Below are positions 1 through 27,976 of a stretch of 32,000 bases of DNA, in pieces; position 1 is the stretch's first letter, and every line of letters begins with the position of its first letter. A program made the position numbers and the translations under genes. The stretch covers positions 461,931 to 493,930 of the forward strand of contig JBGQBI010000001.1 of assembly GCA_041494705.1 (NCBI GenBank), in the 5' to 3' direction. The notes beneath the pieces were generated by a model that worked only from the letters and a program-made list of their open reading frames with translations, made no database searches and was not told the origin of the DNA. The DNA is from Candidatus Methanoperedens sp. Its GTDB lineage: Archaea > Halobacteriota > Methanosarcinia > Methanosarcinales > Methanoperedenaceae.

Positions 1-3000
1 CATACGAGCCGTAATCCGTATCATTATTGGGTATTCTCATCCCTGATATGTTCTCATTCTCATGACATCCTATACATGAAGCGAGATCACTTGTCTTATT
101 ATCCAGCGCCCTGATATTTGTCCCGTTCCTGTAATGATTGGATATAATCGTTGCATTGTATGCTCCTGCATTGCTTCCATTCGCAAGATGGCAGTCCGTG
201 CAGGTGTAGGGCGTGTCTCTCTTATCCGGGTGGGTGTTGTTAGCTACTACGTAGCCGCTTGAGTTGTGACATGCCCAGCAGCTTGCGTTTATGCCATAGC
301 CCGAAGCGTTGTTGCTGTTTATGTTTGCATGCACGGATATGCTGAAATTCGCGCCGTCTATGTAATGCAGGCCGGTGAAGTTCTGGGGATTGGAGTTATT
401 ATGGCAGTCAAGGCAGCCGGGACCGCCGCCGAGTACCACTTCGTTTGAATGGAAATCTACCGGCATGCTCTGGTTTCTGGTATGACAGGTATAGCACGAA
501 TTGTTGCTTATTGCGTATCTGTTCCCGAACATGTTGCTGGCGTTTACCTGCATTGCATTGCCCCATCCATTTCTTATTGTTTCAATGCTCTGGTTGTGGC
601 AGAACAGGCAGTTGGTGGTGTTGGGCATGCGGTCTATGGGGACTGTCCAGTGAGGTGGATCGTACTTGCCAACTGGTACAGAAGCATCGTTATACTGTGC
701 ATAGTAACCTCCGAAATTAGACTTGTTGAAATAGGGGGCTGCGTGACACGTTCCTTCTCCTGTGACTGCGTTGTAACTATAGCAGGTGGTAGAGTATGTT
801 GCAGTGCCGCCCTGCGAGGGTACGCTTACATTAGTGCCCGTTATGTTGGAGTAATTGATATGGGAATAAACATAGGGCAATGTATCATTTATGTCGCTCC
901 TCAATGAATAGAAAGTGGTCCGGTTCGGGCCGGTGAAGAGACTGGTGGTGTTGGGGAGGTGGCAGTTCTCGCACAGTTTGACGCTCTGGAGGTTCGTTGC
1001 GATCGTGCCGGAGTTTGCTGAACCGTGGCAGGCATAGCACGGCTCGGAATCGCTGGGAACTGAGTTTGATTCGTTGAAGTCATCCTGTTCCCAGTCAAAA
1101 CCACGATCGTACGTAAGGGATGGGACGTCAATACCGCCGTGGATTGAATATGAATAGAACCACGGCTGAGAGTGGAATGTGTCGTTTGCGTTCGTGGATT
1201 TATTATGGCAGTTGCCACAGTCCTGGCTTTTTGCGGGATGTCTTGTGAGGTTGGCGTACCATTCCGTTGCATTTGCAGGGGATTTGTGGCACAGCGAGCA
1301 GTTGGTGCTGTTTTTGATAAGGCTGGTGTTGGTGGCGTAGTGGGATATATTGGAATAGATTGCATCTATAGCGTCACCACCACTTATATAAAAACCACTC
1401 GTATTAAAACCGCCCATGCTTTTTATGTGGCAGGCGGCGCAATCTACCGAAGAGTTCAAGTCTGATGTAATTTTGTAACCCAAACCTGCTGTGACTTCAA
1501 TGGTATAATTATACGGTATGTGGTTGTATATTTTCCTCGCACTTAGGTCATTAATCCTGTCTGCATCGGTGTAGGTGAGGTTGTAGGTCGCATTATGGCA
1601 TGCAACGCAGCCGGTTATTATTATTGTTGTGTTAAACTCTGTGCCGTTGGTATGGCATGCCCAGCAGGCTTTGTTCACAGGATCTGATAAAAGATTTGTT
1701 TTGTTTGCAAGATGGTTTAGATTTTGATGAGTTGCATTCGAGGACGAGTTCATTTTAGAAACATCCACTTTAGCTATCGAGTTGTTTGTGGTATTCGACA
1801 CATCATGACATTTAACACAATCAGAAATATCCCCTGTGAGGTGAACTATCCCACTCTTTTTCACAAGCGATTCCTGTCCTGTTATCGCAAAAGGGGACAG
1901 CGAACCTGTGCCGGCGCTTAACGTGCTATTTGTAATGTCCCTGATGGTTTCAAGCATCTCCCATTGTGTAACATTCCAGTGATAGACTACAAGCGTATTT
2001 TCATTTACATTGTTGAGTTCGGCTTTGCTGTAGTGTATAGTTACTTCTGCTGATGAAAATGATATATTCTCCGCGCTAATCTCCACAAATTTTACAACCT
2101 TTCCCGGAACCGGAACTGGCACGGGGTTTTTCTTCCCGAAATCATCAAGAATGACTTTTCCTTTCCCGTGGACTGAAGCATTTTCCAGCTTCAGGGCGGC
2201 ATTTTTTGTGGGGATTGCATCAATTTTAAAGGTTTTTGGATTATCCGGTGCTGCGCTGGCTACGGGTAGAAAAAAATCCAGAATTGAATAAAATATCACT
2301 GCCGGCTCGGTGATAATCGGGAAAGCCAGCCCGATTAGACCTGAGTTGTTTACCTTACGATAAGATTTGACCAGCGAATTGTTTTCAAATATCTCTACAG
2401 TTGAATTGACAAGAGAACCCGATGTATCTATGACATTGATGTCCCACTCCGGAGAAGGAGCCACAATCGCAAAGACTGACAAAGAGTTCACCGTCGTGCC
2501 CAGGATATTATTTACCGCATCGATTTTTGTTGGCAGTTCGTTCCATACCTGCATAGCGCCATCGTACTTGTAAATAGTAAGGTTATTCACATCCAGTCCG
2601 CTCACTTCCGCATCCGTGTATTTTATTGATATATCGGCGTTAGAAAAGGAAACGCCGCTGGAATTGACTTCAACGTACTTTACCGGCGTCCCGGGCGCGG
2701 ATACATTTACGCTCCCGGGCTGGTTGATACCGTAATTTTCCAGTACTACCCTTCCTTTTGGCGAATCACCTGAAATCCGAAGATTGATTGATATGCCCTT
2801 GGTTGCAAAATCATCATAACTGATTATAGTGCCAGGGATTCCGTGCCAGCTTATAAGATTGACATCCGGTTTTGGAGGGCCGCTTGATACCCCATCTCCG
2901 CTTAAAGATATTGCGCCCGTTAACGGATTTCCTGCACTGTCTGTGAATGTTATCTCGCCGCTTGTTTTTTGCGCTTCGGTATGTGTAAGTATTGGAGGAA

Positions 3001-3097
3001 AATACAATAAAGCCGCAGCTATGCCTGATAAAACTACAAACACAAGTATTATGAGCCTGATATTAGAGAGGCCTGCCTTATCTCTTAAAACATCCAT
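1..3097 (-). CDS. Multiheme c-type cytochrome (partial; C-terminus runs off the left window edge), with an N-terminal membrane anchor and two PGF-pre-PGF-like domains
   Basis: Not in the supplied ORF track, apparently because it runs off the edge. My own reverse-strand translation starts at ATG 3097, with an in-frame TAG upstream at 3118-3116. It reads MDVLRDKAGLSNIRLIILVFVVLSGIAAALLYF (TM anchor). Two segments ending ...NSLSVFAIVAPS and ...GSLSPFAITG resemble archaeal pre-PGF domains. There are 14 CxxCH motifs, seen at nucleotide level; frame confirmed for 7 sites (the six listed here plus the CX11CH). Examples: CVKCH 1805-1819, CWACH 1652-1666, CENCH 959-973, CLDCH 401-415, CWACH 266-280, CIGCH 62-76. 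There is also one CX11CH at 743-784. All sites whose frame I checked share the frame of ATG 3097. Confidence 0.85.
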   Translation of the reverse strand, partial: MDVLRDKAGLSNIRLIILVFVVLSGIAAALLYFPPILTHTEAQKTSGEITFTDSAGNPLTGAISLSGDGVSSGPPKPDVNLISWHGIPGTIISYDDFATKGISINLRISGDSPKGRVVLENYGINQPGSVNVSAPGTPVKYVEVNSSGVSFSNADISIKYTDAEVSGLDVNNLTIYKYDGAMQVWNELPTKIDAVNNILGTTVNSLSVFAIVAPSPEWDINVIDTSGSLVNSTVEIFENNSLVKSYRKVNNSGLIGLAFPIITEPAVIFYSILDFFLPVASAAPDNPKTFKIDAIPTKNAALKLENASVHGKGKVILDDFGKKNPVPVPVPGKVVKFVEISAENISFSSAEVTIHYSKAELNNVNENTLVVYHWNVTQWEMLETIRDITNSTLSAGTGSLSPFAITGQESLVKKSGIVHLTGDISDCVKCHDVSNTTNNSIAKVDVSKMNSSSNATHQNLNHLANKTNLLSDPVNKACWACHTNGTEFNTTIIITGCVACHNATYNLTYTDADRINDLSARKIYNHIPYNYTIEVTAGLGYKITSDLNSSVDCAACHIKSMGGFNTSGFYISGGDAIDAIYSNISHYATNTSLIKNSTNCSLCHKSPANATEWYANLTRHPAKSQDCGNCHNKSTNANDTFHSQPWFYSYSIHGGIDVPSLTYDRGFDWEQDDFNESNSVPSDSEPCYACHGSANSGTIATNLQSVKLCENCHLPNTTSLFTGPNRTTFYSLRSDINDTLPYVYSHINYSNITGTNVSVPSQGGTATYSTTCYSYNAVTGEGTCHAAPYFNKSNFGGYYAQYNDASVPVGKYDPPHWTVPIDRMPNTTNCLFCHNQSIETIRNGWGNAMQVNASNMFGNRYAISNNSCYTCHTRNQSMPVDFHSNEVVLGGGPGCLDCHNNSNPQNFTGLHYIDGANFSISVHANINSNNASGYGINASCWACHNSSGYVVANNTHPDKRDTPYTCTDCHLANGSNAGAYNATIISNHYRNGTNIRALDNKTSDLASCIGCHENENISGMRIPNNDTDYGSY

Positions 3098-3261
3098 TTT
3101 TTTGACCCTGGTTTTCTACATTGTTTTCATTCCAATCCTATTTTCCTATCACCTTAATTGTTATTTATGCGCGTTCAAAATAAATAGGTTTACATGATTT
3201 TAATTGAATGAACATAATTATCAATCAGGAACCTGGCTTTTGGTTGTATTGAATGGCATTA

Positions 3262-4098
3262 TCATGACGTTAAATAATCCGTATGACGCCCGCTATATAC
3301 ATACCCGACACCGAATGCGGAAAATGCAAGTATGAAGATGCTGAAAATGATTAGCCATGCAATCCTTTTTCCGGTCCATCCCGCATTCATCCGCAGGTGC
3401 AGGCAAATCCCGTATGTGAACCATGAAATCAAAGACCATGTCTCGATGGGGTCCCAGCCCCAGTACCTCCCCCATGTCTGGTTTGCCCATATAGCGCCTG
3501 CTGCTATCATGATAGTAAGGGCGAAAAATCCCAATGCCACGAAACGATACATAAGATCGTCCATTGTTCGCAAGTCGGGCAGCCTGTCGTAAAATGAATC
3601 CTGGACTCCGGTATTTAAGTGCTTCTCTTTCAATATATAAAGAGCAGCAATGCCTGCCGCTACCATTACTGACCCGAAGCCAAGACTTGCAAAACCCACA
3701 TGGACTATCAGCCAGTAACTCTGGAGAGAAGCCGGTATCATCTGGATATCCCTCGAATAAGTCGAACCTATAGCCATCATCAAAAAGGATGCGGGCAGCA
3801 CTATAAATCCTGCAATCTTTATCTTTTCATATTTTTGCTGCGCGAGCAGGAATATAACTACGGAAAACCATGCATATTTTGATAAAACCTCGTACATACT
3901 GATGTAGGGACCGTGCCCTGTTTCTATCCACCGCAGGGCTATGGAAACGCTGTGGAACAACAAGCCGATTAGGGCGCTGCTGACTGCAAGATTTATTCTT
4001 TCTTCTTTCTTGAAAACAAGGCAGTATAAGTAAACAGCCGAACTGAGCGCATAAAGCATTGCAGCGGCCACGTACATAATCCATTCAGTCTGTCCCAT
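3262..4098 (-). CDS. ccsA: Cytochrome c biogenesis System II heme-handling protein CcsA/ResC
   Basis: 278-aa polytopic membrane protein carrying the Trp-rich WWD-type motif WGRYWGWDPIETWSLISW. It overlaps the stop of the upstream resB-like gene by 14 nt. An alternative start, MYVAAAM, lies at 4077. Confidence 0.9.
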   Translation of the reverse strand: MGQTEWIMYVAAAMLYALSSAVYLYCLVFKKEERINLAVSSALIGLLFHSVSIALRWIETGHGPYISMYEVLSKYAWFSVVIFLLAQQKYEKIKIAGFIVLPASFLMMAIGSTYSRDIQMIPASLQSYWLIVHVGFASLGFGSVMVAAGIAALYILKEKHLNTGVQDSFYDRLPDLRTMDDLMYRFVALGFFALTIMIAAGAIWANQTWGRYWGWDPIETWSLISWFTYGICLHLRMNAGWTGKRIAWLIIFSIFILAFSAFGVGYVYSGRHTDYLTS

Positions 4099-5485
4099 GT
4101 AACCTCTTAATCTTATCTACAATACCTGAATATTCTTCTTCATATAAAGACCTGAACTTATCCGCCCGCCCTCCTATATAAATTTCCACTGCACCGGACT
4201 TTTCATCCCTCTTAACCTCAACCCATACCCTTTTAGGGATTATAAAGAAAGATACCATCAGGCTGAGTATCATCAATCCGGCTCCCGCATACACAAGAGG
4301 CGTTCCGTCGTCCTTCACCACGTAGAAATTACTCCAGTATTTTATATCGTAAAAACCAAGATATTTATCAGATATTTTCACGGTCTCGTTGAGCCGCAAA
4401 GTCCCATCGTAAATCTGCTTTCCCCTGTCAAATACCCTCAAAAACATGATAGGTGTTTTTTCGGCTTCGGATTCCATGAGTTTTCCTGTCAAAGGCGCAG
4501 TCATGTAAACCATCAATCCCCCTTCAAGCCCCGTATTCCCCATTTCAAATGATGCGACATACCTCCCGCTGTTATCGAGGTCTGATGCGGTTATATACGA
4601 GCCGGAATATACCGTCCCGTCAGGATTTTTCAACAACAGCAGCGGCGCAAGACCATAGACGTTTCCAAGAAACGTGTATCCATTATAAGTCATCATGTGA
4701 TTTGAATATACGATATCAGTTTTCACTTTCTGACCATTCTCTATTATGGCAAGCTCACCTGCTGCTCCGCGAGGCGTATGTGTTTCATCCTTATAATCAG
4801 GGAAGAATCTCTCAAGAGATATACCGAATTTCCGATGTTGTTCATAAAAAAAAGGACCTTCATTGATAAACATATAGTTCCCGTGCTCTTCTTCCATGGT
4901 CTGTCCCTCTATTAATCGCATATCCCCTTCCATCCTGCCCGTACTGCCGTAAACCGCAGCTATTATGATGAAAAGTATGCTGATGTGAAATAGCGATGTG
5001 CCCATTATCCCTAGCCTGTTTTTTTCAGCAAGAATGCAATTCTCTTCCTGCCATACCTTATATCCTGCGGACTTAAGTAAAGAACCAGTTTCAGAAATAA
5101 CACTGTTGCTATCTTTTTTTGTTTTAATTACCGAGCTGTTCTCAAGTCCGGTAATGTATGCTTTTTTTTGGAATTGTGGAGCATTGAGCCTTCGAAAAGC
5201 GTTGTTCAACATCGTTCTTGTGCAAAAAAGAGTATTGATGACAAGGAGCGCCGCTATACTTAAAAATATAAATGATGAAAAAAGATGGGTAAAACCGATT
5301 TTCTCAAAGATATCAGCCTGCTCCGGATGGGCAGACTTCCATTTATCATATACATCAGGCTTGAGCTGCGATTGCTGGGGTACATGGGTCCCGATTATCG
5401 AAAATACGATAATAAGAGTAATAAGAACTATCGCAAGTTTTCTGGAGCTAAAAAAAGTAGCGATTTTGCCCATACTAAAATCCAT
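4085..5485 (-). CDS. ccsB: Cytochrome c biogenesis System II protein CcsB/ResB
   Basis: 466 aa. The N-terminus, FFSSRKLAIVLITLIIVFSIIGTHVPQQ...LFSSFIFLSIAALLVINTLFCT, matches the ResB-family N-terminal TM pair. A large soluble loop and a C-terminal TM (LVYAGAGLMILSLMVSFFIIP) follow. It lies directly upstream of, and overlaps, ccsA. Confidence 0.85.
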   Translation of the reverse strand: MDFSMGKIATFFSSRKLAIVLITLIIVFSIIGTHVPQQSQLKPDVYDKWKSAHPEQADIFEKIGFTHLFSSFIFLSIAALLVINTLFCTRTMLNNAFRRLNAPQFQKKAYITGLENSSVIKTKKDSNSVISETGSLLKSAGYKVWQEENCILAEKNRLGIMGTSLFHISILFIIIAAVYGSTGRMEGDMRLIEGQTMEEEHGNYMFINEGPFFYEQHRKFGISLERFFPDYKDETHTPRGAAGELAIIENGQKVKTDIVYSNHMMTYNGYTFLGNVYGLAPLLLLKNPDGTVYSGSYITASDLDNSGRYVASFEMGNTGLEGGLMVYMTAPLTGKLMESEAEKTPIMFLRVFDRGKQIYDGTLRLNETVKISDKYLGFYDIKYWSNFYVVKDDGTPLVYAGAGLMILSLMVSFFIIPKRVWVEVKRDEKSGAVEIYIGGRADKFRSLYEEEYSGIVDKIKRLHGTD

Positions 5486-5612
5486 TATTTTATCTTCCTG
5501 GCTTATTGTTTTTCTAATGTATTACGTTGTTCCATAGAATTGATGCGCATCTCACTATACCCTTGATAAGTAGATATAAATAACTTTGCAGATGATGTAA
5601 ACGTAAACTAAA

Positions 5613-6080
5613 ATGACGCCTCTAAATAAAATAATCGTCCTGATTGCCCTGGGTTCAGTTCTCGTTTTATCGGCTGCCTGGTGGGATTCGCAATCAGGAA
5701 ACAATTCAGCTTTTATCAAACTTGGCGGTGTTTCATTTCATACATCAATAGAACCGGGAATCACAGAGGCAAAGAACTTAAGCAAACCTGTTTTCCTGTA
5801 TTTCAGGTCAGAAACGTGTTACTGGTGCATAAGATTTGAAGATGAAGCCCTGTCTGATAAAAGGGTCATCGATAAACTCAATAAAAATTTTGTTCTTATA
5901 TCGATAGATACATTCAAACAAAAAAATGTTTCTCTCAATCTCAATGTACGAAATACCCCGTACATGATTTTCTTTACAAAAGACGGCGAAGAGATATCAA
6001 GAATCCCGGGCTACCTGCAAACTGACGATTTCCTGGTAAAATTAGATTCCGTATCTGAAAACCTCAACCGGAGCTCTTAG
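5613..6080 (+). CDS. Membrane-anchored thioredoxin-fold protein with a CxxC active site (candidate apocytochrome thiol reductase, ResA/CcsX analogue)
   Basis: 155 aa with an N-terminal signal/anchor (IIVLIALGSVLVLSAAWW). It has a thioredoxin-like core, PVFLYFRSETCYWCIRFEDEAL, with the CYWC motif. It is divergent from ccsB across a 127-bp AT-rich intergenic region that contains 'atataaata'. Confidence 0.65.
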   Translation: MTPLNKIIVLIALGSVLVLSAAWWDSQSGNNSAFIKLGGVSFHTSIEPGITEAKNLSKPVFLYFRSETCYWCIRFEDEALSDKRVIDKLNKNFVLISIDTFKQKNVSLNLNVRNTPYMIFFTKDGEEISRIPGYLQTDDFLVKLDSVSENLNRSS

Positions 6081-7524
6081 TTGCAGTTATATATGTTTCA
6101 ATAAACTTCTTAACCTGAGGTGGCATCTCCCCTTTCATCTGGTTTGAGAGGTAAGAATCGTTGATGAGCAGTCGCGTGACCTCTATCATGTAGTTTTTCT
6201 TAAAATCGCTCATCTCCTCAATCTTTTCAAGCTTTCCCATGTAAAAATCCCGGAACGCCTTTAAAAGATGTTTATTTAGCTCCTCCCGCGTCATGTTGAC
6301 GGGCCTGACTATCGGTTCGATAAGATTGTATTTTGAATAATCAAATTCCTCTATATACGGCGCAAGTTCAGGATAAATATCAGAATAAGGCCATGGGGCA
6401 ATTGCAAGGAAAAACGCAAGGTCAGGATTATAATACTGCGCCAGCTTACATGCCGCCTCTATGGATTCGGGCGTTTCTTCCGGCATCCCAAGGACAAAAG
6501 ATGTCTCCGAAATAATCCCGGTATTGTTTATCAGGTCAATCGCTTCCCTTGACTGCCCTATCCTGATATTTTTCTGATAGCGGTCAAGTGTATCCTGGCT
6601 TGCGGATTCCGCTCCCACGTAGATATGAAGGATTCCCGCCTTTTTGTATTTATCAATTATATCCTTATCACGCAGGATGTCGTCCACCCTTGTTTCCATC
6701 AGGAGTTCAAGGTCAAGTTCTTTCTCGATGAGCAGATCAAGGATTTTCTCCCACCGTTTGCGGTCATACGTGGGGGTTTCATCAGCTATCATGGCAACAT
6801 CCACGCCATATGTGCTGTTTAAGTATTCAAGCTCGGATACGAAGTTTTCAGGGCTTCTCCCTCTCCATTTCTCCCTCCAGAAAAGACGCTGCGAACAGAA
6901 GGTGCATTTCTGGGTGCAGCCCCTTGAAGAACTCACGACTGCAAGTGTGGAATTTTTCTTTGTCTTGAATGTATAATCCTTCCACTCTATAAGGTTCCAT
7001 GCCGCAGGCATTGTGTCCAGATTTGAGATGAGAGGCCGTTCTTTCGTGCAGATGATTTTCCCATCCCGCGCATAAGCAATTCCCGGGGTATCCGGGTTTT
7101 TTTCTGCAAAAACCTGGCTTAAAAGTTCTGATGTAGTGATTTCACCTTCGCCGCGTATGATATAATCTACTATGCTCCTCTCTTTTTGCAGGATTTCCTC
7201 CCAGCAGAAAGTGGGATGGATGCCGCCAAGGAGCGTAATTATCCCCGGATTTACCTCTTTAGCTACCTTGAGAACCGCAATAGCATCGTAAAGGCTTGAT
7301 GTATATGCCGCCGTGCCCACAACATCGGGAGTGATTTCTTTTATGCGCCTTTTGATGTCATCAAAAGTATGGTATTTTGACATCGCATCGTATATGCTGA
7401 CTTCATACCCGGATTTTTGCAGGCTTCCGGCAACATAGACCATGCCAAGTGGCATCCATGTGCCTGCGGATTCGAGTACGCCGCAGTGGTAAGGCGGTGT
7501 TATTAACAGGACTTTTTTAGACAT
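6064..7524 (-). CDS. B12-binding-domain radical SAM protein (class B rSAM)
   Basis: The N-terminal MSKKVLLITPPYHCGV...PLGMVYVAGSLQKSGYEVSIYDA is typical of a cobalamin-binding domain. The radical SAM cluster motif is SSSRGCTQKCTFCSQ (CxxxCxxC). I prefer the ATG at 7524 (MSKKVLL) over the track start at 7587, which would overlap the upstream gene. The 3' end converges with and overlaps the thioredoxin-like gene by 17 nt. Confidence 0.85.
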   Translation of the reverse strand: MSKKVLLITPPYHCGVLESAGTWMPLGMVYVAGSLQKSGYEVSIYDAMSKYHTFDDIKRRIKEITPDVVGTAAYTSSLYDAIAVLKVAKEVNPGIITLLGGIHPTFCWEEILQKERSIVDYIIRGEGEITTSELLSQVFAEKNPDTPGIAYARDGKIICTKERPLISNLDTMPAAWNLIEWKDYTFKTKKNSTLAVVSSSRGCTQKCTFCSQRLFWREKWRGRSPENFVSELEYLNSTYGVDVAMIADETPTYDRKRWEKILDLLIEKELDLELLMETRVDDILRDKDIIDKYKKAGILHIYVGAESASQDTLDRYQKNIRIGQSREAIDLINNTGIISETSFVLGMPEETPESIEAACKLAQYYNPDLAFFLAIAPWPYSDIYPELAPYIEEFDYSKYNLIEPIVRPVNMTREELNKHLLKAFRDFYMGKLEKIEEMSDFKKNYMIEVTRLLINDSYLSNQMKGEMPPQVKKFIETYITATKSSG

Positions 7525-7552
7525 TTGGTTTCTTTGAATACCGGTATGATAA

Positions 7553-10507
7553 TTATATTTTGTGTTTCTTCCAGAACCATAGTGCAACTATTCCTATTAC
7601 CAACGAAAATGCAGCTATGTAGGTTAAATATGGTTTTGTTACTATTTTAACAATCTCTTTGCCATGAAAACTTTTTAATTCTCCTTCAACATGGCATCCC
7701 CAGCAATCCTTATTTCCAATATTACTATGTTGCGAATCCGAAGGCAGGGCTCTGGGATTCCCCCATGCTTTTCTTATAGTTTCATTTTCCTGGATATGGC
7801 AGAAAACGCAATTTTTTGAATCCGGCATGTAATCAACAGGAGAATTCCAGTGGTAAGGGTCGCCCTTGTTAAATAATGTGCCTGTATAATTTGTATTGAA
7901 GGAAAAATAACCGCCTGCTTTTGCTTTATTCCCGAACGTCACGCCATGGCACGAACCCTGGCCGGTTGCTGCATCAAATCCGAAGCAGGAAGACCTTGTA
8001 TTACCTAAAGAAGACTGGTCTGTCACATTGATGGGAGAATTATTGTAATGGGAATATACCACCGGGATATATTTTGTAATATCGGGCCGCACGTTAGCAA
8101 GGGGACTTAGCTCCGGGTTTACTTTTACATGGCAGTCTTCACATACATTCAATTTCGGCGATACATGCTCCGTCATTTTTACGTGGCACACCGGGCAGCT
8201 TTCATTCAGCCTGTCAGCTCCTTTTTCATTGGCATTATCCCCTTCCCAGTCAAAACTATCATGCATGAATCCGGGTGAAAATGGCTTTTCCGGATGTTTA
8301 CCGTTTGAAAAAGTAGTATTGTAATGACAGTTTTCACAATTGTTGCCAGTCGTTCCATGCCTTATTTTATGGCATGAGGTACAATCTTCGGCCGCTGAAT
8401 AAGAAGTAGAATTCACACCTGGCAATTTGTCTGCGGCTGATAGTTTCGGGGTTGTATCGCTATTATTATATTTGCCGCCGGAATTATCCATTGTTGTCGG
8501 GAGAGACATGGTTATCCTGACCACAGCGGTTTTCATTGTTTCTGCGTTACCCGCATTATCCAAACTGAAATATTTAATGGTATGTCCGCCTTCTTCATTA
8601 AAAGTAAGCTGTATATATGGTAAATAAGATACCTGCCCGACTCCATCCACTATGTAGTTTATTGCTTCAACACCTGAGATATTATCAGAAGCTGTAATAT
8701 TGAGAGTTACATTTGCAGTGTGCCACGTACTGTCTGAGTTATCGACCGTCTGTGGAGGGATATTATCAATCCTGATAGTGGCAGTATGAGGTTGTTCAGC
8801 GTTCCCTGCATTATCCACACTATAATACCTGATAGTATGATTGCCTTCCCCGCTTATGGAAACGGTTGTGCCTTTCAGAGAGTATGATGTAGGAATTGGG
8901 CCATCAACGGTGTAATAAGTTTCCATTATACCTGAGCCTGCATCGCTGGCAGTAAGCATGACCGCAACGCTGCTATTATACCATTGACCATCAGCATTGT
9001 CTGACGTAAGAGGTGGGGTTTTGTCGATTTTCACCTGGCTCGGTGCTGTCTTTATCCCTTCGACATTGCCTGCTTTATCCACGCTGAAATATTTGATAGT
9101 ATAAATCCCTTCATTTGAAATACTAAATGTTGTTCCTTCTGTGGAGTTTACTGTTGGTTCTGTTCCATCAATAGTATAGTACGTGGCTGCCACCCCGCTT
9201 TCATTATCTTTCGCTGTCAATGTAACTGTAACGCTGCTATTATGCCATTGCCCGTCCACATCATCCGTGGTTGCGGGAGGTATGGTGTCCGCTGGTTTGT
9301 TATAGTAAGTATAGGCATAGATGTTCCCATTGGAATTCCCCAATATAATCTCCTTGTTGCCGTCCCCTTCCAGGTCCGCTATAGTCGCCGATGTAAACAT
9401 ATCATTAGCGACCCTTGTATTTTCAAGGACATTTCCCTGGTTATCCCATATATACAGGTTCCCGTATGCGTCGCCGGCTGCAATTTCCATCTTCCCGTCG
9501 CCGTTTATGTCTCCAAGCGCGAGATTACTGTCAACCCTTCCGATAGAAGAAAATTCTTTCAGGATGCCATTCCTTATCAGATATATTTTTTTCTCATCAT
9601 TTGAGGCGATTGCCGCACTAATCACGCCTGTGCCGTCTATATCGCCCGTGCCAGGAGATGCTAGGTTACTTTTTATGTTAAATTTATAAAGCTGATTACC
9701 GCTATTATCGAAAATAGATACTCCCGATGACGAAGTCACAATAATTTCATTCCTACCGCTCCCCTCAAAGTCACCGAACCTTGCGCTTCTCGCATCCCCT
9801 CCGAGATCCCTGCTCCAGAGAATTGTTCCCATAATACTATTTACTTTTATTACCCAGATTTTCCCATCTATTGGATTTGCAGAATTGATATCCTGGGTTA
9901 AAATAACAGCCTCATCGATTCCATCCCCGTCGATATCGCCAACCGGGATTGGCGCCCTGTAATTCACAGCCTTTCCAAGCTCAAGATACCAGAGTTTATT
10001 TCCAGAGCTGTCGAATGCATACACACCTGTAGCCTGGGTTATTGATCCCAAAGACGACCCCGGAGCCGCCCCGGTAAGAATTATTCCTTCTTTTGTAATT
10101 GACGGGGAGGAAATAAGCAGATATTTTCCCGGCGTTATATTCGCAATATTATTACCCGCAGTATCCCAGATATAAAAAGTGGCATCCGAGTAACCGGGAT
10201 TACCATAAGAAATTATTTCAAGCCTGCCGCTGATATTGGCTACCAGAGGAGTTCTTGCTTCATCTGCCAGATTTATTCCGCCGGTATTCTCCCAGTCAAG
10301 GACGCCCATATAATTGAACACTTTAATCATCCTGTTATCGGGCGCCGCTATTATCTCAGGTTTCCCGTCTCCGTCTATATCCTGTACAACTAAAAGGGAT
10401 TTAATTGGGCTACCAGTATTGACAGGGAAACCTGCGTGTTGTTCTATCTTGGCAGATACTGTTGTTATCATTAGAAACACTGTTAAAAATAAAACTAGTT
10501 TATTCAT
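7553..10507 (-). CDS. Chimeric surface protein: signal peptide, FG-GAP/VCBS beta-propeller repeats, three Ig-like repeats, a heptaheme c-type cytochrome domain and a C-terminal TM anchor
   Basis: The signal peptide is MNKLVLFLTVFLMITTVSA. Ca-binding-like FG-GAP motifs recur: DIDGDGKPEI, GDIDGDGIDE, GDFEGSGRNE, GDIDGTGV, GDINGDGKMEI, ADLEGDGNKEI. Three ~85-aa repeats have the form DGQWHNSSVTVTLTAKDNESGV..YYTIDG...YFSVDKAGNVE. The heme motifs are CTSCH, CENCH, CPVCH, CEDCH, CX11CH (7946-7987), CVFCH and CWGCH. The C-terminal anchor is IAAFSLVIGIVALWFWKKHKI. I chose the start at 10507: it has a GGAGGGAGGAG SD-like run 11 nt upstream and lies 1 nt after the TAA of the upstream cytochrome gene. 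Confidence 0.85.
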   Translation of the reverse strand: MNKLVLFLTVFLMITTVSAKIEQHAGFPVNTGSPIKSLLVVQDIDGDGKPEIIAAPDNRMIKVFNYMGVLDWENTGGINLADEARTPLVANISGRLEIISYGNPGYSDATFYIWDTAGNNIANITPGKYLLISSPSITKEGIILTGAAPGSSLGSITQATGVYAFDSSGNKLWYLELGKAVNYRAPIPVGDIDGDGIDEAVILTQDINSANPIDGKIWVIKVNSIMGTILWSRDLGGDARSARFGDFEGSGRNEIIVTSSSGVSIFDNSGNQLYKFNIKSNLASPGTGDIDGTGVISAAIASNDEKKIYLIRNGILKEFSSIGRVDSNLALGDINGDGKMEIAAGDAYGNLYIWDNQGNVLENTRVANDMFTSATIADLEGDGNKEIILGNSNGNIYAYTYYNKPADTIPPATTDDVDGQWHNSSVTVTLTAKDNESGVAATYYTIDGTEPTVNSTEGTTFSISNEGIYTIKYFSVDKAGNVEGIKTAPSQVKIDKTPPLTSDNADGQWYNSSVAVMLTASDAGSGIMETYYTVDGPIPTSYSLKGTTVSISGEGNHTIRYYSVDNAGNAEQPHTATIRIDNIPPQTVDNSDSTWHTANVTLNITASDNISGVEAINYIVDGVGQVSYLPYIQLTFNEEGGHTIKYFSLDNAGNAETMKTAVVRITMSLPTTMDNSGGKYNNSDTTPKLSAADKLPGVNSTSYSAAEDCTSCHKIRHGTTGNNCENCHYNTTFSNGKHPEKPFSPGFMHDSFDWEGDNANEKGADRLNESCPVCHVKMTEHVSPKLNVCEDCHVKVNPELSPLANVRPDITKYIPVVYSHYNNSPINVTDQSSLGNTRSSCFGFDAATGQGSCHGVTFGNKAKAGGYFSFNTNYTGTLFNKGDPYHWNSPVDYMPDSKNCVFCHIQENETIRKAWGNPRALPSDSQHSNIGNKDCWGCHVEGELKSFHGKEIVKIVTKPYLTYIAAFSLVIGIVALWFWKKHKI
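8505..9280 (-). repeat. Three tandem ~85-aa Ig-like (bacterial-Ig / OmpL47-like 'AGN-E' type) coding repeats inside the chimeric cytochrome
   Basis: The protein repeats are DGQWHNSSVTVTLTAKDNESGVAATYYTIDG..IYTIKYFSVDKAGNVE, then DGQWYNSSVAVMLTASDAGSGIMETYYTVDG..HTIRYYSVDNAGNAE, then DSTWHTANVTLNITASDNISGVEAINYIVDG..HTIKYFSLDNAGNAE. Boundaries are approximate. Confidence 0.75.
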
Positions 10508-10508
10508 T

Positions 10509-13500
10509 TTACCTGTTTCTCCTCCCTCCAGTGCTTGGTTGAACATGGCAGCCCGTTGAGAAGCATCCGCTACTGCCTACATACATGCCTATATTTTTAT
10601 CATGAAGTGTCATATTAACCTGCGGATTGGAATTATGGCATGAAGACTGGCAGGAAATCCCTGTGCTGCCCATTATATTATGACTAGATGGTAAGATTCT
10701 GGCATTTCCATAATCCTTCCCCACTGCACCTGCGTTATGGCATTTATTGCATCCAAAATTTGTTCCCGTTGTGGCTCTCGTATCGGGCAGTATGCCTGTT
10801 ACTGCTGATGGCATACTTTCACCGAGTGTCCTGCTAACCACGTAATGCGATACCGAGGCGTTCTTTAATTTTTCCGCGGCATAGCCGCCATAATTAATGT
10901 TCTGGTTTGCTACTAAACTATTATTATGACATGAAACGCACGTCCTGTTAGAGTCCACGTTATCGTAAACCACCGTGCCTGAAAATACCGAACCCGGATA
11001 ATGCCGGTACACTAAAGTGGCATTGAAATTATTATTGACATGACAATACTCGCATGGTTTTGGATACTGATAATTAACCGGATGCTTTTCCGGCTGGGTG
11101 CCATTGCCATGACATGCCCAGCAGGCTTTGTTTATCGGGTCCAATACTGAGGTGTTGGTTGCATTACTGTTAAGATTCGCATGCACGCCAAGCTTCATCG
11201 CACTAAAGTTTATCTTCCTGTCGTCCGGCGCCCCGTTTCCTGATACATCGTGACATGAAACACAATCAGGTCCGCTCGCGCTGGGTTTAAGATTGTGGCT
11301 AAAGTCAAGCGAAGTGGCGCCTGTTTTGAGCGCGCTGCCGTGGCAATTTTTACATTTAATATCATCATATCCCGAGGAAAGCGCACCTGAATGGTTGTAG
11401 AAAGCTGTGCCATCCCTGGAAGTAAGCGGGACAAGTCCGCCCATGTTTAACACTTCAGGAGGCACCGGATTGAGAAGGTTCCCCGAGTAATTGGGCGCAT
11501 TCTTGTAATGGCAGTTGGCACACCAGTAACTTCCGTTTAAGCTCTGGTTGTTTGTATTGTTCCCCATGATCTTTGTGATATTGCCCAGAGCTGATGCATT
11601 ATGGAGGGTAATACCATGGCAGTAAACACATGCGCTCTGCGTGTCGCTGTTTGTCCAGTAACCCTGCTGCGTGCCATTCCACAGTGAACCGTTATAAGGA
11701 TCGGCGCTGTGATTCATGGGCGCGGGGATTTTCGGGGCAGTGCTGAAGTTGCCAGGACCGCTCTGGTGGCATGTGGTACAGTTTACTGCATTTGTCCTTG
11801 ATGTGCTGAAGTTGGAGCCGTCCTGCTGGAGGTACCGCACCGGATGGATGCTCCTGCTATCGTTGAGATGGCAGTCTGTACAATTTACGGCATTATTGTG
11901 TGGTTGTTTAAAACCAGTTACTGCTCCTGTATAATTTGTGCCGCCGGTGCCGTTGTTGCCGTGACAGCTCAAGCATAAACGGTTATTATTCACGGGCGAC
12001 GCCGGCTTGTAAAGTGTACTGTTGTGAATTCTGCCAGCCTGGGTTGCATGGCAGTCCGTACAACCCGGATTGGAGGAGGGATAGCCGGATGAGTGGTTTG
12101 CTATCGTCTTGTTTGCATTATCGATGAACGGAAATACTGTTGTCTGGTTGTTGTGGCATTTATTACAGTAATCGTTTGTTCCCTGTGCAGGGTAATCAGT
12201 GCGTTTCTTGCCATAATGACTTGTGCTATTGCTTCCGCCGTTTTCACCGCCGTAAACGCCTGCTGCGCCGTCAGGGTCAGGGTTTGTGCCCAGCATCATC
12301 TCAGTCCTATTATGGCAATCATAGCACGTGGTCACCGCCTCCGTTCTTATACTGGTGCCGTTCCAGTAGTGCTGGGTTACGTATGGTATTATTGCAATAA
12401 GATCTCCATACATATTATGGCATACTGCACAGCTTATACCTATGTGCCTCGTAACATGGCAATCCACACATCTGTAGGGTGTCTTGTAATTGGATGGATG
12501 ACTACTTCCCGGTTCGTTGCCGTTGCCGTGGCATGCCCAGCATTTCTTGTTCTCTGCGGGCAGGGTTGTTGTGGTTCTGCTGTTCAGGTCACTGTGGATG
12601 GCGTTTACATCGTTCATCGCACTGATATTTACAAGTTTTCCTGCACCGGCTGAGCCTCCGATGTTGTGGCAGCCTGTACAGTTGGCTCCTCCTGCCTGTC
12701 CTATACCCACATTATGGCTAAAGTTGAGAGACGTTGCCCCTGCATTGAGGTTATTATCATGGCAGTTCTTGCACGTAGCATCATCATAGCTTGTTGAGAT
12801 TGCACTTGAATGGTTGTAGAATGAAGTTCCATCTTTGGAAATTACAGGGACAAGCCCGCTCTGGTTTAACACCTCAGGCGGCTGCTGAGTTAACAGGTTT
12901 CCTCCATAATCGGGTGCAGTCTTATAATGGCAGTTTGCACACCATCTACTTGTGGTAAGGTCCTGATTTAAACTATTCGTCCCTTTGACGTTGCTTACGC
13001 TACCCAGTGCTGAGATGCTGTGAAGAGTCGATAGACCGTGGCAGTAATAACATGCGCTCTTCTGGCTTGTATTATCCCAGTAAGCGGATTGCAAGCCATT
13101 CCAGAGGACGCCTGCATATGGGTCTGTGCTGTGGTTCAAAGGTACTGGAATCTGTGGCGGGTTCCTGCCTGTGTAGTTGCCTGCCTTGGGCTGCGCTTTC
13201 AGAGCAGCGAAGAACGAAGCGTTCTGGTGGCAATTGGTGCAGTTGCCTCTTGCTGGATTTGGATTATTATGATTCAAATCTACATACGTGGCGTTCTGTG
13301 CAAACACCTGTATGTCATGCACATCGTCGCTGTGGCATAGTGTGCAGTTCACGCCGCCCGATGTGGTGTTGCTTGAGTTGTGCTCGGTATTGCTTGTGTG
13401 GCAGGTTTTACATTGAGAATCTTCTGTATTACTATTCCTTATAAATCTCTGGGTTTCATCAGGTTTAGTGATATTATGCATCGGACCGTGGCAGATGATG

Positions 13501-15602
13501 CAGGGGACTGTTGAGTTGGGTGTATGGAAGGTTCCATTAAAGTCAGTGCCATTGTTTTCAGAATATTCGCTATGTGCAATTGCTTTATTGGAATTATTAA
13601 GAGTGGATTTGCCTGAGATATCCGACCTGTTTGCAGGAGTGTGGCAGACTGTTGTATTGAAACATGAACCTATGACAGCATTTGTACTATGGACTGAACT
13701 GGCTTGATGGCAGTTTGGGTCACTGCAAGTGAGATTTCTGTGAACATCTTTGGTATTAATCCCATGGTTTGCACCACCGGAAGTAAGGGCACCTGGATTG
13801 CCATCAAATGATTGGTGACAGTTTGTACAGTTCAGAGTTGCACTTGTGTGTGTACCAGTTTGAGATATTGTCTCCCTTCCGCCCATATAAGGCGAATTTT
13901 TGGCCATCGTCCCGGCAGGATTCGAACCTGTATGGCCACTGTTACATCCTGACATCCCGCATCCCCACCAGTTGTAGATAAAGCTTGTATTATCGTTAAG
14001 ATTGCCGTTCGACGCTTTGACCGTCCAGTTCCCATAATAGTTCCTTGCATCCATGTCAAAGCTGAAGTTGGCAAGACCATATGCATTGGTTGTAGCATTT
14101 ATTCTTGCCGGAGTATATTCTGTCCCGTTGGGCATGTATAAATTGAATGTTATGACCCTTCCGCTCAAAGGTGAACCTTTATCATCTATGAAAAAGGCTG
14201 TTGCATTGATATTGGTATTTATACCCGTCCAGGAATTAGCGGTGTGAGTTGTTGTCGGTTTAAAAAATCCTGTACCATTTGAACTGGCCGTTGTCCAATC
14301 GTCCAGTATCACATAGCGGTTGGTGGCAACCAGTATTTTCCCCCCAGCCGAAGGCGGCGTGGGCGTAAGCAAGATATTAACATTGCTCATCGCAGCGCCG
14401 CTTACTGTTCCTGTGGTTGAGTTGTCGTTATAACCCGGCTTACTGGCTGTTATGATATAAGTGCCGTTGCCTACCGTAAAATTGTAGTAGCCCGTGCCGT
14501 CCGTACTGGTGGAAAGGCTCGTGTTCGTTGTAACTGCGGCGCCCGTTATCGCCTGTCCGTTTGAGGCATTGGTAACGTAGCCTGATAATTGATAAGTCGG
14601 CACAGGTGTTAGCGAGATGTTTGCAGTGGTATTATGAGCGCCGTTAATTGCTACGTTAATCGAATTTACACCATAACCTGTGAGGCTTGCATTAATAACA
14701 TATGTCCCATTGGATAAGCCCGTGAAATTATAGAAGCCGGTAGCATTTGTTGTCGTGGTCAGGCTTGTGTTTGTCTGAACTGTGGCACCGCTTAGAGGAA
14801 GACCGCTGGATTTGTTGGTAACATAGCCTGAAATATTGTAGAGTGTGGTATCGTTTATAGTGATATTCGATATATAATTATTGAAATACAAACTCACTGT
14901 CCCGGCAGTACCCGTAGTCGTGTTTATTTGAACCATCAGCCTGTGCCCTTTCGGAACAATATATGTAGTATAATTGATTCGAGAGCTGTAGTTTCCCTGG
15001 GTGGTTGCGGTTGGAGTTAGATTTACCTTGTTGCCAATACGGGTTTTTGCGCCGTTTGCAGGATCATATTCGAATAGTGATACGTTTAGCCGGTTATTTG
15101 TAGTACTCGTAGCCTTCCAGCTTATATTAAAAGTGGTATTTCCAGTGATTAAGGTATCATTGGTATAATTAAAAGGGAGATAAAACCTGAAAAGCTCGTA
15201 TTCGGTAGTGGTGGAAGTGGTAGTAAAACTTATATTTGCTACTGTGCCCATGGTTCCGTTTTTCAATAAATTCTTGTAAGGTCTTTGTGCCAGCGGGACT
15301 ATAGTGTTTGTTGCGGAATAATTTGTCATTCCATCCGCCCCCACTGACACATTGCCTGCGGTGTTGTTGTTTTCCAGATAATAAATTTTCACATCCGCCG
15401 CTGCCGGCTGAACCATAGCAAACATAACGCCGGTTATAACTAGAACCAGAATCACAGCTAGTCTTGCCCGTTTTATCCGCTTTTTACAGAAACCTGCATT
15501 CATTTTAGAAGCCATACCACCATTTTCAATAGCAACTGCTATGCCATCAATTCGTTTTCTATTCTGAAGCATCATGAATTGATGTCCTATCCAATTCATC
15601 AA
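10509..15602 (-). CDS. Giant secreted multiheme c-type cytochrome (about 1660-1697 aa; 26 CxxCH plus 4 non-standard CXnCH motifs)
   Basis: A signal-like segment, RARLAVILVLVITGVMFAMVQPAAA, suggests the true start is an internal Met (for example MNAGF at 15503). The N-terminal third is beta-rich and sequon-rich, with two carboxypeptidase-regulatory-like repeats. My manual count of the track translation gives 26 canonical CxxCH motifs. Non-standard motifs are CSDPNCH, CFNTTVCH, CQSSCH and CFSTGCH. There is no C-terminal anchor; the protein ends GCHVQPSTGGRRNR. Confidence 0.9.
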   Translation of the reverse strand: MMNWIGHQFMMLQNRKRIDGIAVAIENGGMASKMNAGFCKKRIKRARLAVILVLVITGVMFAMVQPAAADVKIYYLENNNTAGNVSVGADGMTNYSATNTIVPLAQRPYKNLLKNGTMGTVANISFTTTSTTTEYELFRFYLPFNYTNDTLITGNTTFNISWKATSTTNNRLNVSLFEYDPANGAKTRIGNKVNLTPTATTQGNYSSRINYTTYIVPKGHRLMVQINTTTGTAGTVSLYFNNYISNITINDTTLYNISGYVTNKSSGLPLSGATVQTNTSLTTTTNATGFYNFTGLSNGTYVINASLTGYGVNSINVAINGAHNTTANISLTPVPTYQLSGYVTNASNGQAITGAAVTTNTSLSTSTDGTGYYNFTVGNGTYIITASKPGYNDNSTTGTVSGAAMSNVNILLTPTPPSAGGKILVATNRYVILDDWTTASSNGTGFFKPTTTHTANSWTGINTNINATAFFIDDKGSPLSGRVITFNLYMPNGTEYTPARINATTNAYGLANFSFDMDARNYYGNWTVKASNGNLNDNTSFIYNWWGCGMSGCNSGHTGSNPAGTMAKNSPYMGGRETISQTGTHTSATLNCTNCHQSFDGNPGALTSGGANHGINTKDVHRNLTCSDPNCHQASSVHSTNAVIGSCFNTTVCHTPANRSDISGKSTLNNSNKAIAHSEYSENNGTDFNGTFHTPNSTVPCIICHGPMHNITKPDETQRFIRNSNTEDSQCKTCHTSNTEHNSSNTTSGGVNCTLCHSDDVHDIQVFAQNATYVDLNHNNPNPARGNCTNCHQNASFFAALKAQPKAGNYTGRNPPQIPVPLNHSTDPYAGVLWNGLQSAYWDNTSQKSACYYCHGLSTLHSISALGSVSNVKGTNSLNQDLTTSRWCANCHYKTAPDYGGNLLTQQPPEVLNQSGLVPVISKDGTSFYNHSSAISTSYDDATCKNCHDNNLNAGATSLNFSHNVGIGQAGGANCTGCHNIGGSAGAGKLVNISAMNDVNAIHSDLNSRTTTTLPAENKKCWACHGNGNEPGSSHPSNYKTPYRCVDCHVTRHIGISCAVCHNMYGDLIAIIPYVTQHYWNGTSIRTEAVTTCYDCHNRTEMMLGTNPDPDGAAGVYGGENGGSNSTSHYGKKRTDYPAQGTNDYCNKCHNNQTTVFPFIDNANKTIANHSSGYPSSNPGCTDCHATQAGRIHNSTLYKPASPVNNNRLCLSCHGNNGTGGTNYTGAVTGFKQPHNNAVNCTDCHLNDSRSIHPVRYLQQDGSNFSTSRTNAVNCTTCHQSGPGNFSTAPKIPAPMNHSADPYNGSLWNGTQQGYWTNSDTQSACVYCHGITLHNASALGNITKIMGNNTNNQSLNGSYWCANCHYKNAPNYSGNLLNPVPPEVLNMGGLVPLTSRDGTAFYNHSGALSSGYDDIKCKNCHGSALKTGATSLDFSHNLKPSASGPDCVSCHDVSGNGAPDDRKINFSAMKLGVHANLNSNATNTSVLDPINKACWACHGNGTQPEKHPVNYQYPKPCEYCHVNNNFNATLVYRHYPGSVFSGTVVYDNVDSNRTCVSCHNNSLVANQNINYGGYAAEKLKNASVSHYVVSRTLGESMPSAVTGILPDTRATTGTNFGCNKCHNAGAVGKDYGNARILPSSHNIMGSTGISCQSSCHNSNPQVNMTLHDKNIGMYVGSSGCFSTGCHVQPSTGGRRNR
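11040..11720 (-). repeat. Copy 2 of an internally duplicated ~230-aa six-heme module of the giant cytochrome
   Basis: NHSADPYNGSLWNG..CVYCH..YWCANCHYKNAPNYSGNLLNPVPPEVLN..CKNCH..CVSCH..CWACHGNG..CEYCHV aligns collinearly with copy 1. Boundaries are approximate. Confidence 0.8.
12450..13145 (-). repeat. Copy 1 of an internally duplicated ~230-aa six-heme module of the giant cytochrome
   Basis: NHSTDPYAGVLWNG..CYYCH..RWCANCHYKTAPDYGGNLLTQQPPEVLN..CKNCH..CTGCH..CWACHGNG..CVDCHV. The order and spacing of the six CxxCH motifs match copy 2. Confidence 0.8.
14355..14848 (-). repeat. Two tandem carboxypeptidase-regulatory-like (CarboxypepD_reg/PEGA-like) beta-sandwich coding repeats
   Basis: The first repeat is ISGYVTNKSSGLPLSGATVQTNTSLTTTTNATGFYNFTGLSNGTYVINASLTGYGVNSINV...SLTPVP. 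The second is LSGYVTNASNGQAITGAAVTTNTSLSTSTDGTGYYNFTVGNGTYIITASKPGYNDNS...LLTPTP. Confidence 0.75.
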
Positions 15603-26638: not shown

Positions 26639-26669
26639 AGCGCCACATTTCGAAAGACCGGTAATTCTT

Positions 26670-27950: not shown

Positions 27951-27976
27951 TGAATAGATAAAAACTAAGTCAATGA

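Follow-up and report, generated by a model that had tools for sequence, protein, structure and literature searches.

We analyzed a 32,000-nucleotide (nt) stretch of Candidatus Methanoperedens sp. DNA (assembly GCA_041494705.1, contig JBGQBI010000001.1, positions 461,931 to 493,930 of the forward strand), designated here as “the window.” Its left half carries genes for giant multi-heme cytochromes (MHCs) together with genes for a System II cytochrome c synthase and a cobalamin-dependent radical-SAM enzyme. We consider it probable that these genes form a conserved chromosomal cluster in which the parts of an extracellular heme conduit are joined with a laterally acquired, bacterial-type synthase that attaches the hemes. 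Proteins of the window were searched against Pfam and NCBIfam profiles. Related loci used for synteny comparison are labeled L003 to L057, and unprefixed coordinates refer to the window.

Cytochromes of the cluster

An earlier reading made from the sequence alone (the sequence-only reading) had counted 46 canonical CxxCH motifs in three minus-strand genes, and listing and translation of the open reading frames (ORFs) return the same count (14 + 6 + 26). The first 14 lie in MHC_A, a partial giant MHC gene (2 to 3097, minus strand, ATG at 3097) that is cut by the left window edge, leaving its 5′ two-thirds. Six lie in a fusion protein, the “chimera” (7553 to 10507, 984 amino acids (aa), or to 10546, minus strand), and 26 lie in a secreted giant MHC (10509 to 15602, minus strand; a 1697-aa ORF, given as 1687 aa by gene callers). 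The two largest cytochrome genes had been described as 1 nt apart (TAA-a-ATG), and this spacing holds provided that translation of the chimera begins at the second Met (ATG 10507), a codon closely preceded by a GGAGG-rich stretch. Six further CXnCH sites, kept in orthologues, bring the total for the window to about 52 and bear out the expectation that non-canonical heme sites exist. These are CX3CH, two CX4CH and CX5CH in the 1697-aa protein, one CX11CH in the chimera and one CX11CH in MHC_A. The CxxCH motifs are not chance occurrences, because Pfam independently assigns cytochrome families (cytochrome c7, cytochrome c3 and MtrC/MtrF domain II/IV; E = 1e-4 to 1e-28) to all three proteins. Nearly all of their cysteines fall within heme motifs, and spare His residues are sufficient for bis-His ligation. 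Hydrophobic N-terminal segments were found in each of the three, as anticipated from the signal or anchor sequences assigned to them earlier.

Both giant cytochromes match the family of pentaheme domains II/IV several times over (PF22113, E = 1e-20 to 1e-28) and hold about 28-30 heme sites each, or about one heme per 37 aa. In the 1032 visible aa of MHC_A, an N-terminal membrane anchor or signal is followed by two non-heme surface domains, one of PGF-pre-PGF type, and by a heme region with 14 CxxCH and one CX11CH. Its full-length orthologues are 1481-1487 aa long and carry 26 CxxCH, CX11CH and CX4CH, with no C-terminal helix. The 1697-aa protein begins with a signal (h-region, then AAA/DV), followed by ∼520 aa of beta-sandwich (two CarboxypepD_reg domains and an MG2-like domain) and then by the heme region, within which residues 787-1151 and 1274-1623 form an internal duplication (∼365 aa, 43% identical). 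It has no C-terminal transmembrane (TM) segment. The sequence-only reading was therefore right to describe this protein as unanchored and equipped with beta-sandwich surface domains, although such domains are found in both giant cytochromes, not in this one alone. N-glycosylation sequons number 93 in the 1697-aa protein (41±5 expected) and 56 in MHC_A (19.7±3.8 expected), an enrichment of about 2.3- to 2.8-fold (z about 9.5). Together with the surface domains and signal peptides, this enrichment fits an extracellular location for both proteins. The supply of His for bis-His ligation, the absence of any CxxCK motif from the window cytochromes and the MtrC/MtrF-type matches suggest that the hemes serve electron transfer, not catalysis.

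With regard to surface anchoring, a small protein encoded at 30196-30714 (plus strand) carries a PGF-CTERM archaeosortase sorting signal, from which it follows that the organism uses the archaeosortase surface-anchoring route. The PGF-pre-PGF domain of MHC_A hints at this route, yet the MHC_A orthologues end without PGF-CTERM.

The chimera begins with a signal peptide and carries a TM helix at its C-terminal end (residues 961-979 in the 984-aa numbering). Its N-terminal part (8399 to 10507, minus strand) comprises the signal peptide, a beta-propeller of the FG-GAP type with ∼8 blades and three OmpL47/CHB_HEX_C-type immunoglobulin (Ig)-like domains, as assigned by Pfam and NCBIfam and modeled with AlphaFold2 at a predicted local distance difference test score (pLDDT) of 90.7. 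When the model was compared using Foldseek, the matches were generic 8-bladed propellers, integrin alpha and 1L0Q, an archaeal surface-layer (S-layer) protein with propeller and PKD domains; such matches indicate shape, not function. The probable role of this module is to place the anchor at the cell surface or to bind a surface or a substrate. The C-terminal part (7553 to 8407, minus strand) is a heptaheme module with 6 CxxCH, CX11CH and the C-terminal TM anchor. A database of 5.8 billion proteins contains just 37 members of its family, nearly all of them stand-alone proteins of ∼300 aa. Cys141, Cys153 and His154 are invariant in an alignment of 35 family sequences, so that CX11CH is conserved as strictly as the CxxCH motifs, and another eight conserved His residues could be distal ligands. 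Due to this invariance, and with its six CxxCH motifs, the small membrane-anchored cytochrome probably binds seven hemes.

What the sequence-only reading named the “chimera” calls for a correction: other Methanoperedens encode its two parts in separate genes, and the fusion is specific to this lineage. The propeller/Ig protein is a separate, heme-free gene in L004-L006, and in L004-L008, L010 and L020 the small cytochrome stands alone as a gene of ∼300 aa that includes a signal peptide of its own. The fused state occurs in this lineage, L003 and L017, where a linker stands in place of the cytochrome's signal peptide. Because it is present in four independent assemblies, the fusion is not an assembly error. 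In a Methanosarcinaceae metagenome-assembled genome, a relative of the small cytochrome is likewise next to a beta-propeller protein and a cytochrome with 38 hemes, and the association of small anchor, propeller and giant cytochrome is therefore older than the fusion.

Heme-attachment and radical-SAM genes

Between the cytochrome genes lie ccsB-ccsA, a thioredoxin-like gene and a B12 radical-SAM gene, in agreement with the sequence-only reading. The genes ccsA (resC; 3262 to 4098, minus strand), coding for the heme-handling/synthase subunit of System II, and ccsB (resB; 4085 to 5485, minus strand) overlap by 14 nt. An AT-rich intergenic region of 127 bp (5486 to 5612), which presumably carries the promoters of both divergent genes, separates ccsB from the thioredoxin-like gene (trx; 5613 to 6080, plus strand). 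The latter is convergent with the radical-SAM gene (6064 to 7524, minus strand, 486 aa), and their 3′ ends overlap by 17 nt.

CcsA was identified by Pfam (Cytochrom_C_asm, PF01578, 140 bits, E = 1e-40), by NCBIfam, where its score for TIGR03144 (200.6 bits, above the 187.6 cut-off) places it in the System II family, and by alignment to solved structures of CcsBA (7S9Y and 25VK). System II synthases are marked by a tryptophan-rich WWD heme-handling motif with two external His and one TM His around it; in CcsA the WWD motif WGRYWGWDPIETW starts at residue 209. His133, His234 and His272 match the corresponding residues of both structures and, with the WWD motif, are invariant in nine archaeal copies. 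CcsB matches Pfam ResB (PF05140, 188 bits), with a predicted topology of four TM segments plus a large loop. Its His167, which lies within a TM segment and is invariant in all homologues compared (one bacterial ResB-like protein included), appears to be equivalent to TM-His1 of the solved structures; a PDB sequence search with CcsB gave no match to the CcsB part of those structures. The thioredoxin-like protein matches Thioredoxin_2, Thioredoxin_7 and DUF255 in Pfam and the DsbD C-terminal domain in NCBIfam. It has an N-terminal TM segment and a CYWC active site that is invariant in six other loci, features which suggest a CcsX/ResA-type reductant of apocytochrome cysteines. Judged by these residues and profiles, the maturation genes look like a complete System II synthase with its catalytic hallmarks intact. 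The earlier statement that no component has a biochemically defined role was thus wrong for CcsA, CcsB and the thioredoxin-like protein. Note that an ORF at 19272-19934 (minus strand; 220 aa, Ser/Arg-rich, low complexity, no family match) was considered as CcdA and rejected as a low-complexity antisense ORF of a CobW-family gene. The overlapping plus-strand ORF at 19351-20022, coding for a CobW/HypB/UreG-family GTPase, is likely the real gene.

For the maturation genes, more than 120 protein clusters at 65-94% identity exist, essentially all from Methanoperedenaceae. Beyond this family, the closest relatives with a name come from bacteria (Ca. Frackibacter and Thermoleophilia, ≤45% identity), and the synthase thus appears to be of bacterial type and laterally acquired. 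A 2015 survey of archaeal cytochromes reported System I only, and a large comparative study of anaerobic methanotrophic archaea (ANME) treats only Ccm and CcmF paralogues, with Ccm reported for ANME-2d (PMC9012536). In the open-access literature, no paper was found on System II, CcsA or ResB in Methanoperedens or ANME. The two systems coexist in Methanoperedens, since trx, resB and ccsA lie directly upstream of ccmE, ccmF and two ccmH genes in L056 (GCA_040960975.1, 6093-14398). A cytochrome b/DOMON pair and a cupredoxin gene are also found near this locus, which has no radical-SAM gene. Dedication of CcsBA to the CX11CH site was considered and rejected as a firm claim, because in L010 and L020/L021 the genes for CX11CH proteins accompany the radical-SAM gene while no ccsBA is adjacent. 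The idea is also weakened by L011, in which a 1137-aa MHC without any non-canonical motif lies beside ccsBA.

The radical-SAM protein combines an N-terminal B12-binding domain (PF02310, 95.8 bits) with a radical-SAM core (PF04055, 88.6 bits) in which CTQKCTFC represents the CxxxCxxC motif, and is therefore a cobalamin-dependent (class B) enzyme. Its best NCBIfam match is BchE, the Mg-protoporphyrin IX monomethyl ester cyclase (TIGR02026), at 401.5 bits, with the next family at 138 bits. Like BchE it has the B12-binding domain and the CxxxCxxC motif, and it matches the BchE profile over the full length (query 5-451 versus profile 2-453 of 497). We refer to it as BchE-like, not as BchE, because the score is below the 481.35-bit cut-off and the context is heme attachment in a methanotroph. 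Unlike BchE, it occurs in a non-phototrophic organism and neighbors heme-attachment genes, which rules out the chlorophyll intermediate as its substrate.

This gene is the best conserved of the cluster (80-93% identity across all Methanoperedens loci) and, in every locus but two, has ccsBA no more than 5 kb away. Its arrangements are of three kinds. In the first, it follows the heptaheme gene or another MHC gene, with ccsBA beyond; in the second, it belongs to a unit of heptaheme gene, radical-SAM gene and a cytochrome gene with at least 56 hemes, without ccsBA; and in the third, it accompanies trx-ccsBA but no MHC. A metagenome scan returned a second tier of relatives at 47-50% identity, on contigs that also carry a sigma-54 activator, LysR and VanY. 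Loci L041, L044 and L048 are frameshifted, low-quality metagenome loci and were left out of the count of divergent relatives. Within the second tier the neighbors are a true CcsA (L030, 1-2720), ResB-like and CcsA-like genes with an NHL propeller (L035, 8001-16862), CcsA-like, ResB-like and AhpC-like genes (L043, 5362-12167), or a redoxin and an NHL propeller (L032/L033; L033, 6653-8663). Some WWD motifs in these bacterial-type neighborhoods are degenerate, and an FtrD-like membrane Fe-S protein is also present. The neighborhoods may represent an undescribed conserved system. Recurrence of the set of radical-SAM enzyme, thioredoxin fold, CcsBA or CcsBA-like proteins and propeller, which resembles the gene content of the window, argues that the enzyme works with heme-handling proteins; its most likely role is alongside the System II genes, with heme or the apocytochrome as its target.

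Conservation of the cluster and its flanks

Homologues of the chimera, CcsA and the small cytochrome module were found almost exclusively in Candidatus Methanoperedens/Methanoperedenaceae, which supports an ANME-2d archaeon as the source. The order MHC, propeller, heptaheme, radical-SAM, trx, ccsB, ccsA, MHC, with trx on the opposite strand, is conserved in loci from seven other Methanoperedens assemblies (L003-L009, L017-L018). Variants of this order were found in L011 (assigned to Ca. M. ferrireducens by the assembly table in PMC7327174), L015, L024, L045, L054 and L057. Large MHCs flank ccsBA in 15 of the 18 informative loci, and cytochromes and maturation genes are thus kept together in most of them, the outcome sought when a synteny comparison was proposed with the sequence-only reading. 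The same figure makes its description of cytochromes with “their own” maturation genes plausible, although these genes are not strictly private to the cytochromes, since trx-ccsB-ccsA stands alone in three loci.

The sequence-only reading had also called the module self-contained. This does not hold: the cluster continues past the window edge in close relatives, and it contains neither a quinol-oxidizing subunit nor CcdA. By comparison with these relatives, the window cuts off ∼2.6 kb of the cluster, corresponding to ∼450 more residues of MHC_A and two small cytochromes, after which housekeeping genes follow. In L017 (15451-16684) the small cytochromes (145 and 263 aa) come after the giant cytochrome, each with an N-terminal TM helix, and are candidate membrane entry points for electrons. 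One of them contains a CICH (CXCH) sequence and a weak N-terminal match to NapC/NirT (E = 0.008, below cut-off).

Other features distinguish individual loci. A large S8 (subtilisin) peptidase gene follows the cytochromes downstream of ccsA in L011 (10973-18740), L015 (10975-20852) and L057 (9237-12038), recalling the OmcZ/OzpA clusters (PMC10874420, PMC11208441); when the 434-aa cytochrome of L011 was compared with solved OmcZ by PDB sequence search, no match was found. Toxin-antitoxin pairs are inserted inside the module in L057. L027 (1-11047, Ga0172368_10007813) encodes ParA, a helix-turn-helix protein, a PMT_2 glycosyltransferase, a 779-aa cytochrome, the radical-SAM enzyme and CcsA, with a HEPN/nucleotidyltransferase pair in the usual place of trx and ccsB. 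Its guanine-plus-cytosine (GC) content of 34%, far below the 40-45% listed for Methanoperedenaceae genomes (PMC7327174), suggests a copy on an extrachromosomal element.

To the right of the cluster in the window are genes for CofH, a pterin-binding protein, MarC, rubrerythrin, a class II aminoacyl-tRNA synthetase (tRNA-synt_2b core and HGTP anticodon-binding domain) and ThiC. The cofH/pterin/MarC genes are syntenic in two other assemblies (L003, L006). A mobile genomic island is not supported, given this flank synteny and the uniform GC content; the locus is chromosomal, with no obvious mobile island. IMG/VR scans for ccsA and the radical-SAM gene returned nothing relevant, with no sign there of a viral or Borg-borne copy. 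Next to the cytochrome cluster, at 15716-16021 (minus strand), a class I/II aminotransferase that is 387 aa long in L003 and L006 is reduced to a 101-aa remnant by an in-frame internal deletion of ∼826 bp, which brings '...KFSLE' up against 'NI.EGLDRIEKYL' (with an 11-nt overlap of the aligned segments at the junction). The region 24000-29800 has low GC content (0.31-0.41), broken by thiC (26670-27950, GC 0.50). Its ORFs have no Pfam matches except for a winged-helix regulator, and a weak HNH-endonuclease-like PHROG match lies at 25393-25674; this region may be a variable or foreign segment.

Interpretation of the cluster

The maturation genes compare most directly with bacterial System II (CcsB/CcsA, or ResB/ResC, with ResA/CcsX), known from structures of the fused CcsBA of Helicobacter hepaticus (7S9Y) and Bacteroides thetaiotaomicron. 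Shared features are the split CcsB and CcsA from overlapping genes, an identical WWD core (WGRYWGWD..ETW), the three CcsA His residues, the TM His in CcsB and a membrane-anchored thioredoxin-fold partner. The differences are an archaeal host, the lack of CcdA in the cluster, the constant BchE-like neighbor and a setting between 26- to 30-heme cytochromes. A second comparison is with dedicated lyases, namely CcsA1 (for CX15CH of MccA) and NrfI (for CxxCK) of Wolinella succinogenes and CcmF2 beside ANME MHC-B (PMC10663686, PMC9012536). Like these, the window synthase adjoins cytochromes that it may serve and that have long-spacer motifs (CX11CH, CX3-5CH), and its lineage contains a second maturation system. 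Unlike these, modules of the window type also occur without neighboring cytochromes, and the ANME precedent is a System I component.

The giant cytochromes share the PF22113 pentaheme module with MtrC/OmcA/MtrF of Shewanella, and by their sequences would likewise be surface-exposed and of bis-His type. They are not members of the MtrC/OmcA decahemes, which have ten hemes and four domains (pentaheme domains II and IV in alternation with beta-barrel domains I and III): the window proteins have 28-30 hemes, no porin partner, an archaeal envelope with N-glycosylation, N-terminal CarboxypepD_reg, MG2 and PGF-pre-PGF domains, and no PDB sequence match. With ANME MHC types A-C and the OmcZ/OzpA-like clusters of Methanoperedens and Borgs (PMC9012536, PMC10874420, PMC11208441), they share the organism group, non-canonical CXnCH motifs and a proposed role in S-layer crossing or long-range transfer. 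Among the ANME types, A and B have an S-layer domain together with a C-terminal TM helix, B has a peptidase M6-like N-terminus, and C has a pectin-lyase N-terminus (PMC9012536). Neither giant protein in the window has an S-layer, peptidase-M6 or pectin-lyase domain (Pfam and NCBIfam, E ≤ 0.01) or a C-terminal helix. OmcZ/OzpA clusters combine an octaheme OmcZ-like protein, which has a cleavable C-terminal domain, with an adjacent S8 peptidase and prolyl isomerase, and the window contains no S8 peptidase or prolyl isomerase. The window proteins thus belong neither to types A-C nor to the OmcZ cluster.

We infer from these sequence features that the cluster serves extracellular electron transfer (EET). 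EET is an established capacity of Methanoperedens, which induces MHC clusters on electrodes and metal oxides (PMC10874420, PMC7327174). In the proposed scheme, apocytochromes would be exported unfolded via Sec, the thioredoxin-like CYWC protein would hold the CxxCH cysteines reduced, and CcsBA would export heme and form the thioether bonds. A separately encoded menaquinol:cytochrome c oxidoreductase, of a kind described for the family (PMC7327174), would feed electrons to the membrane-anchored heptaheme protein and the two small anchored cytochromes. The bis-His heme chains of the giant proteins would then receive these electrons and carry them through and beyond the S-layer to minerals, electrodes or partner cells.

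Several observations weigh against a heme conduit with its own synthase. With no quinol-oxidizing subunit in the cluster, the entry of electrons is a proposed step. The window contains no CcdA/DsbD_TM gene, and L055 is the sole locus with a DsbD_TM gene close by, ∼1 kb from the module. PDB sequence searches with the heptaheme profile and the 1697-aa protein returned nothing usable, and the AlphaFold2 model of the heptaheme module (pLDDT 47 with the 35-sequence alignment) was not used. Three loci (L013, L055, L056) carry trx-ccsB-ccsA without an adjacent MHC, and the synthase may therefore serve the whole cytochrome complement. Finally, no CxxCH proteins were found near the bacterial-type radical-SAM relatives, and the function of the enzyme may therefore not be cytochrome-specific.

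In the most speculative extension of our interpretation, the BchE-like enzyme would be an unrecognized partner of a System II-type machine for heme export and attachment that modifies heme or apocytochrome, and the laterally acquired set would give an archaeon with System I a second, specialized route to extracellular 25- to 60-heme wires with sites of the CX11CH type. Taken as a whole, this proposal is rather doubtful. That the enzyme is instead unrelated to cytochromes, modifying a lipid, a cofactor or another protein and being carried along by gene order, is a serious possibility, though it falls short of being the expected outcome. The enzyme is cytoplasmic with no evident substrate, scores below the BchE cut-off and has the CxxCH-free bacterial relatives; archaeal cobalamin radical-SAM enzymes have also been proposed for tetraether lipid cyclization (bioRxiv 10.64898/2026.04.29.721654). 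These points are countered by a linkage that persists over ∼20 loci in several arrangements, at 47-93% identity and in both archaeal and bacterial-type contexts, by the position of the gene as the cluster's most conserved (80-93% identity), and by a closest characterized family that works on a metalloporphyrin.

It is also possible, although we think it improbable, that trx-ccsB-ccsA, alone or together with the radical-SAM gene, provides the cell with a cytochrome c synthase for general use, one of several, whose adjacency to MHCs reflects co-regulation or shared history. The module stands alone beside a ribosomal operon in L013, beside housekeeping genes with the DsbD_TM gene nearby in L055 and beside CcmE/F/H in L056, and the MHCs flanking ccsBA vary between genomes. 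Against such a role, MHCs flank ccsBA in 15 of the 18 informative loci. At least two ccsBA loci, each beside MHCs, occur in GCA_040961635.1, which suggests specialized paralogues, although this bin may be mixed. Precedents for specialization are the dedicated CcsBA isoenzymes for unusual motifs in Wolinella (PMC10663686) and the dedicated CcmF paralogue beside ANME MHC-B (PMC9012536).

A redox sheath, capacitor or cell-cell contact matrix, serving storage, interspecies transfer or adhesion in place of a directed wire, would agree with the adhesion-type architecture of the proteins (FG-GAP propeller, Ig-like, PGF-pre-PGF and CarboxypepD_reg domains) and with the lack of a C-terminal membrane anchor on either giant. 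The choice between direct interspecies transfer and mineral reduction has been left open for Methanoperedens MHC clusters (PMC10874420). We regard this arrangement as unlikely; it is a variant of the conduit interpretation and does not contradict it. Catalytic periplasmic-type reductases (of nitrite, hydroxylamine, sulfite or tetrathionate) are a highly improbable identity for the giant cytochromes, although the sequence-only reading had named membership in ordinary nitrite or hydroxylamine reductase families as fatal to its view. Catalytic multi-heme reductases (NrfA, HAO, Otr, MccA) are recognized by a family profile match and by an active-site heme with CxxCK, CX15CH or a tyrosine cross-link. 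Such an identity is favored by sub-threshold matches only (NrfH at 27.7 bits versus a cut-off of 134; cytochrome c554 at E = 1e-3) and opposed by the lack of CxxCK and of any Nrf, HAO or Otr family match in Pfam/NCBIfam, by 28-30 hemes at about one per 37 aa, by sufficient spare His for bis-His ligation, and by surface domains and sequon enrichment that fit extracellular conduits.

Giant cytochrome clusters for EET in ANME-2d are already known. What is new is a System II synthase in an archaeon, tied to such clusters and accompanied by a conserved cobalamin radical-SAM partner, together with the CX11CH heptaheme anchor family and the lineage-specific propeller/heptaheme fusion. The heptaheme anchor, with its 37-member family, is a tractable entry point for biochemistry, and the cluster provides candidates for the heterologous production of archaeal multi-heme wires, a bottleneck for bioelectronics and ANME biochemistry. 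Linkage of the radical-SAM gene to CcsBA-type genes reaches into bacteria and may point to a new step in c-type cytochrome biogenesis. In the standard account archaea use System I only, whereas here an apparently intact System II is widespread in Methanoperedens and physically tied to giant cytochromes. The disposal of electrons by anaerobic methane oxidizers controls methane emissions from wetlands and sediments, and the giant cytochromes are the presumed wires.

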